The translations under genes and the position numbers were made by a program. Source: a virus (lineage: Duplodnaviria > Heunggongvirae > Uroviricota > Caudoviricetes). From it: a DNA stretch of 43,250 nt. Within the stretch, counting starts at the first letter, position 1. Each line of letters starts with the position of its first letter. The stretch is from the IMG/VR virus record IMGVR_UViG_2654587569_000010. One strand, 5' to 3'. The notes under the pieces were generated by a model. That model was given only the letters and a program-made list of their open reading frames with translations, did no database searches and had not been told where the DNA came from. Positions 1,237-25,151 of the stretch are shown here, piece after piece.

Positions 1237-3399
1237 TTATTCACATAAAGATATTGATGCCAATATAAACATTGCAAGTTCGTCATATCTTATACCATAA
1301 CTTTCACAAAAGATATCTATATTTCCAGTCATGTGTTCGCGATGCGTTTTATCGTGACACCAAAACCCATACTTACTAGGATCAAGTCCGTGCTTCCTCA
1401 TTATATTACCAACAGTTTGAGCTCCAACACCAAAATGCCACCTAGCACCATCAAATCCCTTTACCTCAACAGAATCCAGCATCTTAAACTTTTTAATATT
1501 ATCTTTTATTTCTAGTGCAGCTTTTTTTTCAGCAACATCAATGTCTGTTAGTTTTGTTTTCAACATTTCATTTGATGTATTTATCATTCCTGTAGTTGCA
1601 TATATTGTTTTATATCTCGCATCCGGCCCACCAATATCAAAAGCATTATCAATTTGTGGTGTAATTTTCCCATAATGAAAGAATAATTCATGCTCACTAT
1701 TACCTATAGCTACAGTATTCTGAGCGGCAATTACCCCACTACCGATAGCTACTGCGTTACTTCCGGTTGATTTTGTATTATCTCCGAGAAGGACGCAGTT
1801 TGTCACATCTGTAGCCTGCTCTGACACGTTACCAGAATTAGAACCTAAAAATACATTGAAAGATCCAGCCGTTACTTTAAACCCTGCATCGAATCCAATA
1901 CCAACATTATCAGATCCTGATGCAGAATATAGCGCCTCGTAACCTATAGCTGTATTATTATTACCTAACGCGTTGAAACCCGACTTAGCCCCTACCGCAA
2001 CACAATACTGGATAGACACCCCCGTAGGAAAACTGGAATTACCGCCACGTAACGCATATTCACCAAAAGCGGTGTTCTCATTACCAGCACTGTTGTGATA
2101 CAAGGCCTGCACACCTGCCGCAGTATTCCCAAATCCTGTTTTGTTATACCTGTTAGTATCATTACCAATACCAGTATTACCGTAGCCTGTTGTGTTTGCA
2201 CATAACGCAAAAACCCCAACCGCTACGTTATCAGAACCAGATACGTTAGCTCTTAGAGAATCAGCACCGTATGCACAATTGTTTTTACCAGTCTTATTGT
2301 TTTCCATAGACTGAATCCCAGACGCGGTATTTGCGTATCCTGTAGTGTTTGAGTGCAAACTCTTCCACCCATATGCGGTATTGTTAGCTCCTACGTTTCC
2401 ACCGCCTAATGAGTCTTTTCCAGCGGAAGTATTAGTATCATTGTTTCCGCTAACATTAAAAATAACGCTTCCTGATTTAACGATGCTGCCACTTCCTGTG
2501 TTTATTACTGATGGATTGGAAGGAATGAAAAATGACCATGAGTCATTTACTGTATGTCCAGTGGTTGAAGAAAAGTTTATCTTCAATCCACTTACGAAAA
2601 AATCCACCCCACCTGCAAGTATTACGATTGGTTGCTGAGATACACTGTCATCGATTGGGTTGTACACGTCTATCGTGTCACGCCATGTAACTCCATTATC
2701 TGTACTGAATTCAAGCTTATCAGGATTTGAAGCTTCTTTTATTCTTACAATTGCATTTAGATCTTGCTGTCCATTGTATATTCCTGACACGGTCATGTCG
2801 TTAACACCAGAGCCAGAATATTTAGTCTGGTAATTAATCACTACTATGCCAGGCCCCCAATATCTCTTATTTAAGTTAATATTATTTACATTATAAATAC
2901 CATCAGGAATGTATATGTCATTGAATTCCGATATCTCTGCATCGTTAAATGCCTGCGTATTGTTTGTTAATCCATCACCAATAGCACCAAAAAAAGTAAT
3001 AGGCTTCGAAACACCACCTATCAATCCTGCTCCACCAGATGATTCAAGCTCCAACCTTAATTGATCCGGCTCATACTTCAACACATTAGGAAAATAGAAC
3101 TGCTGTGCACCATATGCGTCATAAACAGCCATAGAATGGCCTTGCACAGTTACGAACTTTGCAATCTGCCCGTTATATACCGGGTATCCAGCAGCGTTAA
3201 TGATGATTGGTTGCGAAACAGGAACGTGAGAGCCGTCTTCGTTCTCCACATAAACCTGAATCTGGTTTTCAGGATTTACCGGGTCAGTGTCAATTTTACC
3301 GATATAAATTTTGCCATTGGCTACGGCTTTAAAAGAACGCGCCATAGTGAAGAGTTGCGAAGGCATCGATACGATCACATTGGCTGTAATGTCTGTCAT
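1237..3399 (-). CDS. tailspike: P22 gp9-like head-binding N-terminus, Gly/Asn/Thr/Ala-rich repeat middle, C-terminal intramolecular chaperone (S74-like) domain
   Basis: N-terminal 115 aa ([11 protein letters not shown]...[19 protein letters not shown]...[12 protein letters not shown]) matches P22 gp9; C-terminus ...[22 protein letters not shown]... resembles autocleaving chaperone of endosialidase-type fibers. Confidence 0.8.
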
Positions 3400-3531: not shown

Positions 3532-3789
3532 ATGATGTACAGCAAATACGATGAGGCGCAGTTCCACTTGAGGCTTACGCACGAGTTGCACGCTAAGATT
3601 AAGCAGCGTGCAAAAATGAATAACAGGTCTATCAATTCCGAAATTGTGGCTACGATGGAAGAATCACTCTCCAAACCATCACCTGTAAGCGGGTATCGTG
3701 ATGAAGAAGAGAGGCTGGCCTCATTAATCTCGGAACGAGTAAAAGAAGTTGCGGCTGATATCCTTAGAAAAGAAAAAACCCGCGATTAA
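3532..3789 (+). CDS. mnt: Mnt-like ribbon-helix-helix repressor
   Basis: Only the last 85 aa of track ORF 3061..3789 are credible; QFHLRL...NNRSINSEIV...SLSKPSPVSGYRDEEERLA parallels P22 Mnt; GGTGAGG SD 5 nt before ATG at 3532. Confidence 0.7.
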   Translation: MMYSKYDEAQFHLRLTHELHAKIKQRAKMNNRSINSEIVATMEESLSKPSPVSGYRDEEERLASLISERVKEVAADILRKEKTRD

Positions 3790-21233: not shown

Positions 21234-21758
21234 TCAATTAATCAGCAGTTCAGGCTGTGTCACCTGCAAAATGTATTCATGCTCGACAGCCAGGACACGC
21301 TTCTCTTTCTTCCGTTCGTTCATTAACCGACTGCCGATCGTACCTTTCAGCTTTGAGCGTGTTTCTTTGATGGCGTAGCGGTGCTGCATTTCTTCGCCAA
21401 TTGCCATGCGGCGGCTCAGTTGCTCTGCCATCCAGTTGAATGCTGCGATATAGCTCTCCTTGATTGCCGCAGCAGCTTTCCCGGTGAACCCCATCACAAC
21501 CATGATCCAGCCATCTTTCGTCAGGCTGTACATCGGGCGAACCTTGCCCTGCTCATCGATATAATCAGCCGACGCAAAATTGCGTTGGCTAAACTCACGC
21601 GAGCAATCAGCCTTAACCTGCTCGATTTTCCTGAGAACATCACCGTGTCGCTTGCCGAAGTACTTGGCAATTTTTCTGGATGTGGTAACGACCTCTCCGT
21701 TTTTGGCTTGCACCATTTCTCGGAAGTCGAAGGCTGGAATAACTGAATGATTATTCAT
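21234..21758 (-). CDS. rha: Rha-family phage regulatory protein
   Basis: Track ORF trimmed to ATG at 21758; N-terminal ...VTTSRKIAKYFGKRHGDVLRKI matches Rha family signature. Confidence 0.6.
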   Translation of the reverse strand: MNNHSVIPAFDFREMVQAKNGEVVTTSRKIAKYFGKRHGDVLRKIEQVKADCSREFSQRNFASADYIDEQGKVRPMYSLTKDGWIMVVMGFTGKAAAAIKESYIAAFNWMAEQLSRRMAIGEEMQHRYAIKETRSKLKGTIGSRLMNERKKEKRVLAVEHEYILQVTQPELLIN

Positions 21759-21900
21759 AGCGTCTTTACCTTTTAGAAAGTGAGCCTGTCTCACAGAAAA
21801 GCCGCCCGAGAGAGGTCGCCACCTATAACGGCATTTCTCAGGCTCGCTTACTGAAAGGCTCTCGTTAATATGCGCGTGAGATGCGCGTTTACTGCGGACA

Positions 21901-21924
21901 TAAAAAAGCCCCGCATCGCGAGGC
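21901..21924 (-). terminator. rho-independent terminator downstream of lysis cassette
   Basis: Minus strand GCCTCGC-GAT-GCGGGGC hairpin followed by TTTTTTA. Confidence 0.5.
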
Positions 21925-21956
21925 TCATTAAATTGACTTTGTGATTTGCAAAAAAA

Positions 21957-22394
21957 TTATTTCAGGCATTGCGTCCTGATGTACTCCTGCAGGTAGTTAA
22001 CCTGCGCGGTTATCTTGTCGATTCCACTTCGGAGACGGTAATAATTGAGTTCAGCATCTGCTGTAAGTCCTGGGGTTTCTCCATTGCCCATGCCGCTGGC
22101 TCCGGTCGTTGACTTTGCACAGGTGGCGGCGACTTGCAGGCGCTTACGACCAGAAGAAACATCAGCACGGAGACTTTCGATAGTCGCGTTAGCATCAGCA
22201 AGCTCCTTTGTGTATCTGGCGTCGAGTTCTGCTACGTCACGTTGACGCTTCTGCATGTCAGCGATGATGGATGTGGCTTTGTCGCGCTGGGCTTTGTAGG
22301 CGATGGCGTTATCACGGTAATGATTAACAGCCCATGACAGGCAGACGATGATGCAGATAACCAGAGCGGAAATAATCGCGGTTACTCTGCTCAT
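21957..22394 (-). CDS. Rz: i-spanin Rz
   Basis: 145 aa; [31 protein letters not shown]... matches lambda Rz N-terminus. Confidence 0.85.
22010..22201 (-). CDS. Rz1: o-spanin Rz1 embedded in Rz (+1 frame)
   Basis: Lipobox LVVSAC then Pro-rich [13 protein letters not shown]; nested in Rz as in lambda. Confidence 0.7.
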
Positions 22395-23416: not shown

Positions 23417-23492
23417 TGGTGCTGGTTAACGGACTTGAACCGCTACCCATTCGCTTACAAGGCGACTGCTCTACCATTGGAGCTAAACCAGC
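23417..23492 (-). tRNA. tRNA-Thr (anticodon UGU), CCA encoded
   Basis: 76-nt cloverleaf by hand: acceptor GCTGGTT/AACCAGC, D-arm GCTC-CAATGGTA-GAGC, anticodon loop CTTGTAA, T-arm AGCGG-TTCAAGT-CCGTT; one mismatch in anticodon stem. Confidence 0.6.
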
Positions 23493-23497
23493 ATATT

Positions 23498-23572
23498 TGG
23501 CGGGACAGCGTGGACTCGAACCACGATAAGAAGGTTAACAGCCTTCCGTAATGACCTTTATACGACTGACCC
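23498..23572 (-). tRNA. tRNA-Asn-like (anticodon GUU), CCA encoded, atypical D-arm
   Basis: Anticodon stem GAAGG/CCTTC with loop CTGTTAA, T-arm CGTGG-TTCGAGT-CCACG, acceptor with one T-T mismatch; 5 nt upstream of tRNA-Thr. Confidence 0.5.
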
Positions 23573-23635
23573 AAATAAAAAATCCCGAAACCGTTATGCA
23601 GGCTCTAACTATTACCTGCGAACTGTTTCGGGATT
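23573..23635 (-). terminator. tR'-like terminator of the late leader RNA
   Basis: Minus strand AATCCCGAAAC...GTTTCGGGATT stem followed by TTTTTTATTT, recalled as the lambda tR' sequence. Confidence 0.7.
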
Positions 23636-23765
23636 GCATTTTACAGACCTCTCAGCCTGCGATGGTTGGAGTTCCAGACGATACGTCGAAGTGACCAACT
23701 AGGCGGAATCGGTAGTAAGCGCCGCCTCTTTTCATCTCACTACCACAACGAGCGAATTAACCCAT

Positions 23766-24256
23766 CTATCCCATACTGGAGAATTCACCATGATATTTTA
23801 TCCTGGCATTTTCCATTGCCTTTCTCGCCTCCTCGATATCGTCAAAACACCCTACATGAATCCTTTTACCATTGACCCTAATTCTTCCAACCCACTTGTT
23901 TGCAGCAGAATTAAAAGTCACCCCCTTCACACCAGATGAATTGTTTTTCCTCATCTTGCTGTTCCATGAGTTTTGAGTGTTAGTAACAACACGAAGATTG
24001 GCTATCCGGTTATCAGACCTATCACCATTAATATAGTCAATCACATCGGTTGGCCAATCATTGTAAACCATCAGCCATGCAATTCTATGGACATATAGCC
24101 GCATTCCATAAAGTTTTACCTGCAGATATCCATTTGTTTATAGCCAGCAACAGCGCCATAGATAAATCTAGAAGACCGAGGTGGATTCTTCCATGTAAGA
24201 ATTCCAGTATCTGGATTGTAATTAAAAAGTCTCAATGCATCTTCACGTTTTAACAT
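23766..24256 (-). pseudogene. HNH (HNH_3/AP2-type) homing endonuclease gene, split by a frame break and with degenerate HNH motif
   Basis: 46-aa ORF 24116..24256 (MLKREDALRLFNYNPDTGILTW...AVAGYKQMDICR) is the family N-terminus; track ORF 23766..24104 continues in the -1 frame (LYVHRIAWL...DYINGDRSDNRIANLR); expected DH of the HNH motif reads DY. Confidence 0.6.
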
Positions 24257-24456
24257 AGGCGAACCACATAGATATTAGAGCCTGCTGACATAGAAATATC
24301 ACCACGAGAGAAGTCGCCAAAAGCGATATTTCTCAGGCTCTATTCCTATGTGCTCTCGAGTTTATGATGCGCATGTCAGTGCGCTTAGAACTTAAAGATG
24401 AGGTGGGTAAAAACTGAAAGAATGTGAACGGATATAAATCTGCCATTCTTGAGTCA

Positions 24457-24485
24457 AATTTACCCAATTTTATTCAATAAGTCAA
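24457..24485 (-). promoter_or_regulatory. pR'-like late promoter (Q target)
   Basis: Minus strand -35 TTGACT (24480..24485), 17-nt spacer, -10 TAAATT (24457..24462); surrounding sequence matches lambda pR' as recalled. Confidence 0.7.
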
Positions 24486-24527: not shown

Positions 24528-25151
24528 CTAACGTGTGACCGCATTCAAAATGTTGTCTGCGATTGACTCTTCTTTGTGGCATTGCACCACCAGAGCGTCA
24601 TACAGAGGCTTAACAGTGCGTGACCAGGTGGGTTGAGTAAGGTTTGGGATTAGCATCGTTACAGCGCGATATGCGGCGCTTGCTGGCATTCTTGAATAGC
24701 CGACACCTTTGCATCTTCCGCACTCTTTCTCAACAACTCTCCCCCACTGCTCTGTTTTGGCAATATCAACCGCCCGACCTGTACCGTGGCAATCTCTGCA
24801 TCTTGCGCCCGGCGTCGCGGCACTACGGCAATAATCCGCATAAGCGAATGTTGCGAGCACTTGCAGTACCTTTGCCTTAGTATTTCCTTCAAGCTTTGCC
24901 ACACCACGGTATTTCCCCGATACCTTGTGTGCAAATTGCATCAGATAGTTGATAGCCTTTTGTTTGTCGTTCTGGCTGAGTTCATGCTTACCGCAGAATG
25001 CAGCCATTCCGAATCCGGCTTGTGATTGCGCCATCCCCATAGCAGCCATCACATCAGTACCGGAAAGAGAGTCAGAAGCCGTAGCCCGTGGTGAGTCGCT
25101 CATCATCGGGCTTTTTGGCGAATGAAATTTAGCTACGCTTTCGAGTCTCAT
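24528..25151 (-). CDS. Q: late gene antiterminator Q (lambda type)
   Basis: 207 aa; MRLESVAKFHSPKSPMMSDSPRATASDSLSG... essentially lambda Q. Confidence 0.95.
   Translation of the reverse strand: MRLESVAKFHSPKSPMMSDSPRATASDSLSGTDVMAAMGMAQSQAGFGMAAFCGKHELSQNDKQKAINYLMQFAHKVSGKYRGVAKLEGNTKAKVLQVLATFAYADYCRSAATPGARCRDCHGTGRAVDIAKTEQWGRVVEKECGRCKGVGYSRMPASAAYRAVTMLIPNLTQPTWSRTVKPLYDALVVQCHKEESIADNILNAVTR

Follow-up and report, generated by a model that had tools for sequence, protein, structure and literature searches.

A pseudoknotted leader RNA precedes a decayed HNH endonuclease gene and other late-operon cargo genes in lambda- and P22-like prophages

The late-control region of a P22-like (Lederbergvirus-type) prophage, encoded on the minus strand of a 43,250-nucleotide (nt) stretch of viral DNA (IMG/VR record IMGVR_UViG_2654587569_000010; the whole stretch is referred to here as the window), carries a 680-nt insert between the late promoter pR' and the terminator tR'. 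A sequence-only reading had described this insert as a degenerate HNH homing-endonuclease gene. We report that about a quarter of it is not endonuclease, a fact missed in that reading, and instead forms a pseudoknotted leader RNA of 125 nt upstream of the gene. Since the same RNA also heads unrelated accessory genes, the unit is a cassette of leader RNA plus cargo gene and not a bare homing-endonuclease gene. As an insertion, the endonuclease gene adds one more case to a known kind; of greater value as a lead is the leader RNA family, whose structure appears not to have been described before.

Among diverged HNH cassettes, the interval 24386..24262 is nearly invariant. We derived its structure from an alignment of 17 distinct copies: a hairpin (H0) is followed by a long three-part helix (P1-P2-P3), and two pseudoknots (PKa and PKb) complete the fold (Table 1). 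In this alignment 98.5% of the cells are paired, and 11 pairs are changed on both sides, compared with 5.8 +/- 1.4 in shuffles (0 of 500 reach 11) and at most 5 when partners are slid. RNAalifold independently recovers H0, P1, P2 and P3. About 47 cells hold G-U pairs, which would be A-C mismatches on the opposite strand, indicating that the sense RNA is the folded species. These G-U pairs, together with the nested and pseudoknotted arrangement of the helices, disfavor another candidate that we considered, a DNA-level inverted repeat or protein-binding site. Across 32 distinct copies, the PKa partners make up at least 16 different complementary pairs, such as CTGACAT/ATGTCAG, CTAGCAT/ATGCTAG, TCTCAC/GTGAGA and CCGAAA/TTTCGG; cognate pairings average 7.3 base pairs (bp) versus 4.1 bp for non-cognate ones, and PKb behaves alike. 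The junction nucleotides UGGCGA and AGAAAU are invariant. Compensatory changes, strand-specific G-U pairs and a fixed distance to the start codon of the downstream gene (see below) are the general hallmarks of a structured cis-acting leader. A scan of the whole window against Rfam 15 (E <= 1) returned two tRNAs only and assigned the leader RNA to no family, whether ribozyme, riboswitch, isrK or c4, and literature searches by keyword and by sequence string retrieved no description of the motif apart from P22F, a small RNA of phage P22.

A covariance model made from the leader helices was used to find diverged copies, and the window itself contains a second one, upstream of a gene of the Rha family. 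Copy 2 follows Rz (22394..21957) and an intrinsic terminator (21926..21902), and its PKa, TCTCAC with GTGAGA, is wholly unlike that of copy 1 but still complementary. The Rha start codon supported by a Shine-Dalgarno sequence (ATG, 21758) begins 11 nt past the last P1 pair; the start of the program-made open reading frame (ORF; GTG, 21794) falls within the RNA. Copy 2 and its flanks have matches in 1,227 of 5,426 complete E. coli genomes, and in 487 of these the match covers 80% or more of this stretch; a related locus, L023, has another Rha allele behind a 94%-identical leader.

Phage P22 carries a copy at 21257..21384 (AF217253; locus L225, 558..685), upstream of rha/ORF201. The annotated ORF201 start (21326) lies inside the RNA structure, and the likely start is at 21396. 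P22F is an 89-nt small RNA validated by reverse transcription PCR (RT-PCR), at 21301-21389, to which no function was assigned (PMC13397905, 2026). It corresponds to the 3' two-thirds of the motif, beginning just past the 5' strand of P1 and stopping 6 nt short of the rha ATG, so that this region of the P22 family member accumulates as a discrete RNA during infection. The report of P22F includes neither the 125-nt fold, the pseudoknots, the family-wide conservation nor the link to cargo genes, and the window copies are relatives of the P22 copy at a distance of 27 bits.

Pattern scans found the same element at the head of unrelated ORFs in Morganella, Xenorhabdus and many IMG/VR prophages. A contig scan with the 17-mer TATTTCTATGTCAGCAG gave 78 matches, mostly chance occurrences in unrelated phyla, the real ones being the Morganella and Xenorhabdus loci. 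The cargo genes encode HNH-AP2, Rha, P22_AR_N/ORF11CD3 and KilA-N proteins and an 80-amino-acid (aa) Acb2/Tad1-hairpin-like protein. In 25 of 27 copies the distance from P1 to the ORF start is 7-13 nt, and the Shine-Dalgarno sequence overlaps or abuts the P1 3' strand. Most copies outside pR' leaders sit directly after an intrinsic terminator. The 80-aa cargo, from Xenorhabdus beddingii (locus L103, 1275..1517), has a hairpin domain of the Acb2/Tad1 family of anti-CBASS/anti-Thoeris sponges (Pfam E=4e-14), suggesting that the cassettes carry counter-defense genes besides regulators. In three IMG/VR loci (L169, L170 and L183), two cassettes of leader RNA plus ORF stand in tandem in one late operon, with no recombinase visible.

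Alignment to lambda confirms that the copy 1 cassette lies within the pR'-tR' leader, with a net gain of 680 nt as the sequence-only reading had estimated. Lambda-like sequence extends to position +8 of the transcript (24443), with mismatches at +3/+4 only (window AAGAATGG versus lambda AACGATGG). Similarity ends at +9 (24442) and returns at 23766/23765 with GATGGGTTAATTCGC, which is lambda +4 onward, continuing at ~99% identity through tR'; the exact joints are ambiguous owing to a short ATGG repeat at either junction. From +1 (24450) to the tR' U-run (23582..23577), the leader measures 874 nt versus 194 nt in lambda, in line with the ~870 nt first proposed. The first 33 nt of the transcript (24450..24418, that is +1..+8 and the 5' end of the insert) could fold, by minimum free energy, into a 5'-terminal hairpin (AAGAAUG...CAUUCUU) that would take in the pause element, and loci L030 and L031 could form analogous hairpins of other sequence. 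The insert is carried by 16 of the 5,426 complete E. coli genomes (the flanks are matched in 1,232 of these), always between Q and tR' and annotated as 'HNH endonuclease', and by a further 19 loci in IMG/VR. It is missing from all 106 phage records that match the flanks, and the sole match in a sensitive search of phage records is a weak one, of 94 nt, to a homing-endonuclease gene of a Morganella phage.

The gene in the insert is indeed of the HNH_3/AP2 type. The 112-aa window fragment matches the Pfam domains HNH_3 (E=6e-16) and AP2 (E=3e-8). HNH_3 scores 58.3 bits in this fragment and 61.4 bits in an intact relative, against a cut-off of 24.8, and AP2 scores a marginal 34.3 and 33.8 bits, respectively, against a cut-off of 33.3; as both domains exceed the curated cut-offs, the domain call is not due to chance. 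The repaired protein belongs to PHROG 99 ('HNH endonuclease'), and PADLOC returned a single match, to its generic 'homing endonuclease' model (E=3e-5). A sequence search of the Protein Data Bank (PDB) gave only insignificant or weak matches, to I-HmuI (E=0.66, PDB 1U3E) and to plant AP2 domains. The gene is split in the window, although the break does not lie at 24116, where it had been placed: the triplet 24118..24116 is the resulting stop codon, and the lesion itself is a 1-nt deletion at 24139..24137. The expected DH of the HNH motif does read DY, through a change of CAT to TAT at 24035..24033. The insert is 681 nt long in all 16 E. coli genomes versus 680 nt in the window, which fits one extra base, and a single unbroken frame of 163 codons with D-H is present in the three E. 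coli genomes that were read base by base and in 13 IMG/VR loci. The catalytic His and the uninterrupted frame, both lost from the window copy, are intact in 11 other distinct alleles; these differ by 16 synonymous and 7 nonsynonymous changes, a per-site ratio of ~0.12. Where intact, the HNH-AP2 protein is, judging from these substitutions, under purifying selection.

Two rival readings would deny the insertion or the decay of the gene. If the long leader were ancestral and the 194-nt lambda leader a deletion product, nothing would have been inserted at all. Deletion derivatives of the long form do exist (L009 and L010), and TAGAGCCTG, in the loop of lambda tR', is also the sequence of the 5' strand of P2 in the leader RNA. 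This possibility nevertheless appears very improbable: carriers are confined to those 16 of ~1,230 E. coli genomes and are absent from the sequenced phages searched; the cassette-free leaders are of at least two unlike kinds (lambda/HK446 and the short P22/mEp213 type), which part from the window at the same point, after +8; the conservation of the cassette is far above that of the flanking Q gene; and the covariance model finds no remnant of the motif in lambda or HK446. The comparison thus supports a derived insertion over an ancestral segment. As for the split frame, it lies within a short homopolymer (A3 versus A4) and had raised the questions of an indel error and of programmed frameshifting. 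That an error in sequencing or assembly explains it, or a programmed -1 frameshift that keeps the gene functional in the window phage, is scarcely credible. The deletion and the His-to-Tyr change recur jointly in L023 and L024, which come from other genome projects, and nowhere else; L024 is almost identical to the window, while L023 differs by 30 substitutions over 5.3 kilobases (kb) and has the other Rha allele downstream, so the allele is inherited and sequencing error is ruled out. The site has no X XXY YYZ slippery heptamer, and the relatives need no frameshift, 11 of 11 intact alleles reading straight through with the extra A, which leads us to reject programmed frameshifting; the catalytic His is moreover lost independently of the frame. 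Two protein clusters were also considered: P0005 (112 aa), a candidate for the truncated product of the window, was rejected as it is an N-terminal fragment and gives no evidence for a frameshift allele, while P0008 (a 112-aa C-terminal ORF from Citrobacter) is a possible further truncated allele. By its sequence, the window copy is a real pseudogene of the HNH-AP2 family.

Other loci reveal further states of the cassette. In L028 and L029, which retain the leader, an in-frame internal deletion of 327 nt has reduced the gene to its two ends, a remnant of 54 codons. In E. coli RMDEC465 (L009), pR' and the first 113 nt of the insert are fused directly to the 3' half of tR', and the deletion is bounded precisely by two copies of TAGAGCCTG. 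In window coordinates, the copy in the insert is at 24342..24334 and that in the lambda tR' loop at 23607..23599; FDAARGOS_943 (L010) has a further variant of this deleted leader. Point lesions, internal deletion and loss of the whole gene add up to at least three independent routes of inactivation or loss. The RMDEC465 deletion (L009, 2457..2640) takes out the 5' arm of tR', and around 2450..2500 L010 has acquired an additional GC-rich hairpin with a U-rich tract behind it (CTCCCCGCCCTGTCGGGCGAGGGTTTACGGCGTTTTT), which may be a replacement terminator. At ~3560..3700 in the IMG/VR prophages L013 and L016, a different segment with its own terminator (GCCCCGCAGAGATGTGGGGCTTTTGTTTT) takes over part-way through the 6S-like sequence that follows the HNH gene, showing further mosaicism inside the leader.

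More distant HNH homologues, 85%, 74% and 65% identical at the protein level, lie between a Q gene and a holin gene each time. The adjacent Q proteins are 93%, 38% and 38% identical to that of the window, and the leader RNAs of these cassettes score 141, 137 and 122 bits. A separate Q family was considered for L031 and L032 and rejected, as their Q proteins, at 38% identity, share Pfam family PF03589 with the window Q. Another homologue (L157) is located between endolysin and Rz in a Morganellaceae-type prophage. Like a homing gene, the cassette is sporadic at one fixed site among homologous genomes and more conserved than its flanks. Its conservation, far better than that of Q, and its recurrence just past a diverged late-promoter start argue that it moves horizontally, and the overall pattern fits such an element.

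How would the insert affect the late operon? Lambda Q loads through the Q-binding element and an adjacent -10-like sigma-dependent pause element (PMC9388147). The Q-binding element of the window is identical to that of lambda, and the pause element, AAGAAT, matches TATAAT at 4 of 6 positions (A at position 2, T at position 6) versus 3 of 6 for lambda AACGAT. The sequence from +9 on, including the lambda pause position (+16/+17), is replaced, as is the sequence after +8 in natural leaders of the P22/mEp213 type, whose Q is near-identical. As the Q-binding and pause elements are kept, Q control is probably intact, although the position or lifetime of the pause could still differ; the earlier proposal that the insert disturbs the engagement of Q with paused RNA polymerase was overstated. 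pR' is constitutive and in lysogens normally yields only a short terminated leader (PMC7547250). Placed between this promoter and tR', the cassette should be transcribed in lysogens, which would make an 874-nt terminated RNA including the endonuclease ORF, and once Q acts it would be the first part of the late transcript. A simple scan found no terminator-like site inside the insert on the minus strand, a weak test, since lambda tR' too escapes this scanner. We also considered a sigma-70 promoter within the leader RNA and rejected it: the spacing from CTGACA to TATAGA is 23 nt, and a promoter scan gave no site upstream of the ORF within the cassette, its only upstream match being pR'.

Taken together, these data point to the following scenario. 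A 680-nt accessory-gene cassette, comprising a ~56-nt 5' stretch, the 125-nt leader RNA (four helices, two pseudoknots) and a free-standing HNH_3+AP2 endonuclease gene, would have entered a lambda-type late leader between transcript positions +2 and +9. Its movement would rely on homing promoted by the endonuclease, on recombination through the conserved leader, or on both. The gene is intact and under purifying selection in most carriers and dead in the window lineage, as one stage of a decay series ending in deletion. With the Shine-Dalgarno sequence of the cargo held in the closing helix P1 and the ATG 7-13 nt downstream, the most likely role of the leader RNA is to gate translation of the cargo, which would restrain toxic or dosage-sensitive products. 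In phages of the T4 family, structures sequestering the ribosome-binding site are known on the I-TevI, mobE and segB mRNAs (PMC3014915). We consider this explanation probable as a whole; the anatomy, distribution, lesions, selection and RNA structure are shown by the data above, and homing, lysogenic transcription and translational gating are inferred.

Several observations weigh against parts of this scenario. The sequence-only reading was right to see an HNH_3+AP2 endonuclease-type gene, degenerate in the window lineage, but its homing is something that we infer: no cleavage site, homing event or transcript is on record, and the ATGG repeat at both junctions is unlike the product of clean double-strand-break repair. 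The leader also heads non-nuclease genes (Rha, KilA-N, P22_AR_N and Acb2/Tad1-like), so that cassettes can turn over without the endonuclease, perhaps by recombination through the leader alone. It is also conceivable, though rather doubtful, that the intact HNH-AP2 protein is a nuclease or DNA-binding protein of benefit to the prophage, expressed constitutively from pR' and acting for instance to exclude superinfecting relatives, with the window copy a loss-of-function allele. Purifying selection on the intact alleles would suit such a role, as would the position of the gene in the sole late-region stretch transcribed in lysogens (PMC7547250) and the host-interaction cargo of sister cassettes, which includes regulators and an anti-defense-like gene with the Acb2/Tad1 hairpin domain. 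However, the gene is sporadic, being found in 1.3% of prophages with the same Q, it has been inactivated or lost by several routes, and the same site is occupied behind distant Q genes, all of which is typical of the gain and decay cycle of homing endonucleases; the only PADLOC match likewise is a generic model of that class.

Translational gating in turn has to contend with the weak Shine-Dalgarno sequence of window copy 1 (GUGG), where sequestration may consequently matter little, and with P22, where the best Shine-Dalgarno sequence lies just 3' of P1 and not within it. P22F, a discrete RNA of 89 nt whose first nucleotide directly follows the 5' strand of P1, is explained by processing no less well than by simple translational repression. 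A serious rival, which we regard as possible rather than probable, is therefore that the leader serves RNA processing: the polycistronic late transcript would be cut before each accessory gene, by self-cleavage of what would be a new ribozyme or at a site dedicated to an RNase. Two covarying pseudoknots and invariant junction nucleotides are far more elaborate than occlusion of a ribosome-binding site needs; P22F starts at the boundary between P1 and J1-2 of the P22 copy and ends just short of the rha ATG; the motif occurs directly after intrinsic terminators and in tandem cassettes; and hammerhead ribozymes are known beside variable single genes in prophages (PMC3088659). Yet no ribozyme family of Rfam 15 is matched, the ends of P22F, which derive from small-RNA sequencing, could mark the points at which a stable structure halts degradation, and the fixed ATG spacing and the overlap of the Shine-Dalgarno sequence with P1 point to translation. 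More speculatively, and with no greater likelihood, the leader might represent a functional class of RNA that is new, whether a ribozyme that cleaves itself or a riboregulator responding to a factor or ligand, and serve as a shared 'on-ramp' for exchangeable late-operon accessory genes of P22- and lambda-like prophages, while its DNA may double as a homology arm or target for cargo swaps.

The cassette shares features with several known systems without coinciding with any of them. Free-standing HNH homing genes (mobE of Aeh1/T4-type phages, I-HmuI) likewise combine a small HNH_3 catalytic domain with a DNA-binding domain, here AP2, are intergenic and sporadic at a fixed site in similar phages, occur as decayed copies and have mRNA structure covering the ribosome-binding site (PMC3014915). 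In contrast to them, the cassette lies within an antitermination leader instead of between or inside conserved protein genes, and upstream of its gene it has, in place of a simple hairpin, a double pseudoknot of 125 nt that non-nuclease genes have as well; the sequence similarity of the window gene to I-HmuI is insignificant. The HNH-AP2 class itself has been noted in phages RB49 and Felix O1. The lambda pR'-qut-6S-tR' unit and StxS of Stx phages share with the window the Q family, an identical promoter and Q-binding element, the pause element at +1..+6 and tR', and a constitutive leader in lysogens would be expected here as in lambda and StxS (PMC7547250, PMC9388147); the window leader, much longer than the 194 nt of lambda and the 74 nt of StxS, adds a structured RNA and a protein-coding gene. 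Hammerhead, twister and other self-cleaving ribozymes also are compact RNAs right before single changeable prophage genes, at times in tandem (PMC3088659), but the leader RNA has no sequence or structure match to the ribozyme families of Rfam 15.

Morons are also accessory genes among the essential late genes of lambdoid phages. By the definition of Juhala et al., the inserted gene reportedly has its own sigma-70 promoter upstream and its own terminator downstream. No sigma-70 promoter is evident in the cassette and the terminator after the gene is lambda tR'; elsewhere, cassettes have the terminator upstream instead of downstream. In the IsrK-orf45-anrP leader of Gifsy-1, translation of a downstream antirepressor-like gene depends on RNA structure, and the leader RNA described here does not match the Rfam isrK family.

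The surrounding prophage has structural genes ~95% identical to those of phiv205-1 and CUS-3 and a late-control module that is lambda-like. The -35, spacer and -10 of pR' are completely identical to lambda, and all the parts of a lambda-type Q antitermination cassette are recognizable, with a Q gene, pR' and its Q-binding element, a predicted pause element at +1..+6 and a predicted intrinsic terminator. After tR' come tRNA-Asn and tRNA-Thr, then S, R and Rz. This tRNA pair is present in some cassette-bearing prophages and absent in others, indicating that several downstream backgrounds host the cassette.

Table 1. Features of the window discussed in the text (window coordinates)
Feature	Position	Strand	Basis or remarks
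Leader RNA copy 1, pseudoknotted, 125 nt	24262..24386	-	Covariation; RNAalifold; covariance model 138 bits
H0 stem (copy 1)	24384-81 with 24372-69	-	
PKa (copy 1; H0 loop with bulge between P2 and P3)	24379-73 with 24291-85	-	
PKb (copy 1; H0/P1 linker with apical loop)	24359-53 with 24310-04	-	
P1 (copy 1)	24352-46 with 24271-65	-	
P2 (copy 1)	24341-34 with 24284-77	-	
P3 (copy 1)	24333-23 with 24302-292	-	
Leader RNA copy 2, diverged	21767..21888	-	Covariance model 64.3 bits, E ~1e-12
Rha-family gene, cargo of copy 2	21234..21758	-	Pfam PF09669 99 bits; PHROG 518
Inserted segment relative to lambda-type leaders	23767..24442	-	Alignment; net gain 680 nt
5' part of insert, ~56 nt, less conserved	24387..24442	-	Homologous but diverged stretches in L030-L032
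N-terminal HNH-AP2 fragment, 46 codons and premature stop (24118..24116)	24116..24256	-	ORF list; alignment to intact genes
1-nt deletion site, AAA versus AAAA in all intact relatives	24137..24139	-	Alignment
C-terminal HNH-AP2 part, -1 frame, HNH_3 and AP2 (program ORF 23766..24104)	23766..24136	-	Pfam; PHROG 99
TAT (Tyr) in place of catalytic His (CAT) of D-H motif	24033..24035	-	Alignment; only in window, L023 and L024
Q antiterminator gene, 207 aa, lambda-Q family	24528..25151	-	ORF; Pfam PF03589 Antiterm 192 bits; 99% DNA identity with lambda Q
Late promoter pR'	24457..24485	-	Matches lambda throughout; also called by promoter scan
pR' -35 TTGACT; 17-bp spacer with Q-binding element; -10 TAAATT	24485..24480 (-35); 24462..24457 (-10)	-	
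Transcript start +1 = 24450 (counted from -10 hexamer) and -10-like sigma-dependent pause element AAGAAT	24445..24450	-	Alignment to lambda, HK446, P22, mEp213
Remaining lambda 6S-like leader (lambda +4 onward) including tR'	23577..23766	-	99% identity to lambda 44,5xx-44,781
tR' hairpin arms; U-run	23635..23625 and 23591..23581; 23582..23577	-	Predicted; terminator function carried over from lambda
tR'-to-holin interval: tRNA-Asn(GTT) 23572..23498 and tRNA-Thr(TGT) 23492..23417	23417..23572	-	ARAGORN; Rfam tRNA

Our findings describe an endonuclease gene that has colonized a regulatory leader, the pR'-tR' antitermination unit, and not a coding gene, placing a nuclease gene in the only part of the late region transcribed by lysogens. 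The record includes alleles that are intact, inactivated by point lesions, deleted internally or excised, a compact natural series of gain and decay, and the Q-loading signals appear to tolerate full replacement of the transcript from +9 onward. Beyond the endonuclease, a widespread structured RNA with strong covariation, missing from Rfam, heads variable late-operon genes in the model phage P22 and in many E. coli prophages; about one in five complete E. coli genomes contains it. Its mechanism, be it a translation gate, a processing site or a ribozyme, would explain the small non-coding RNA P22F and possibly old rha phenotypes.

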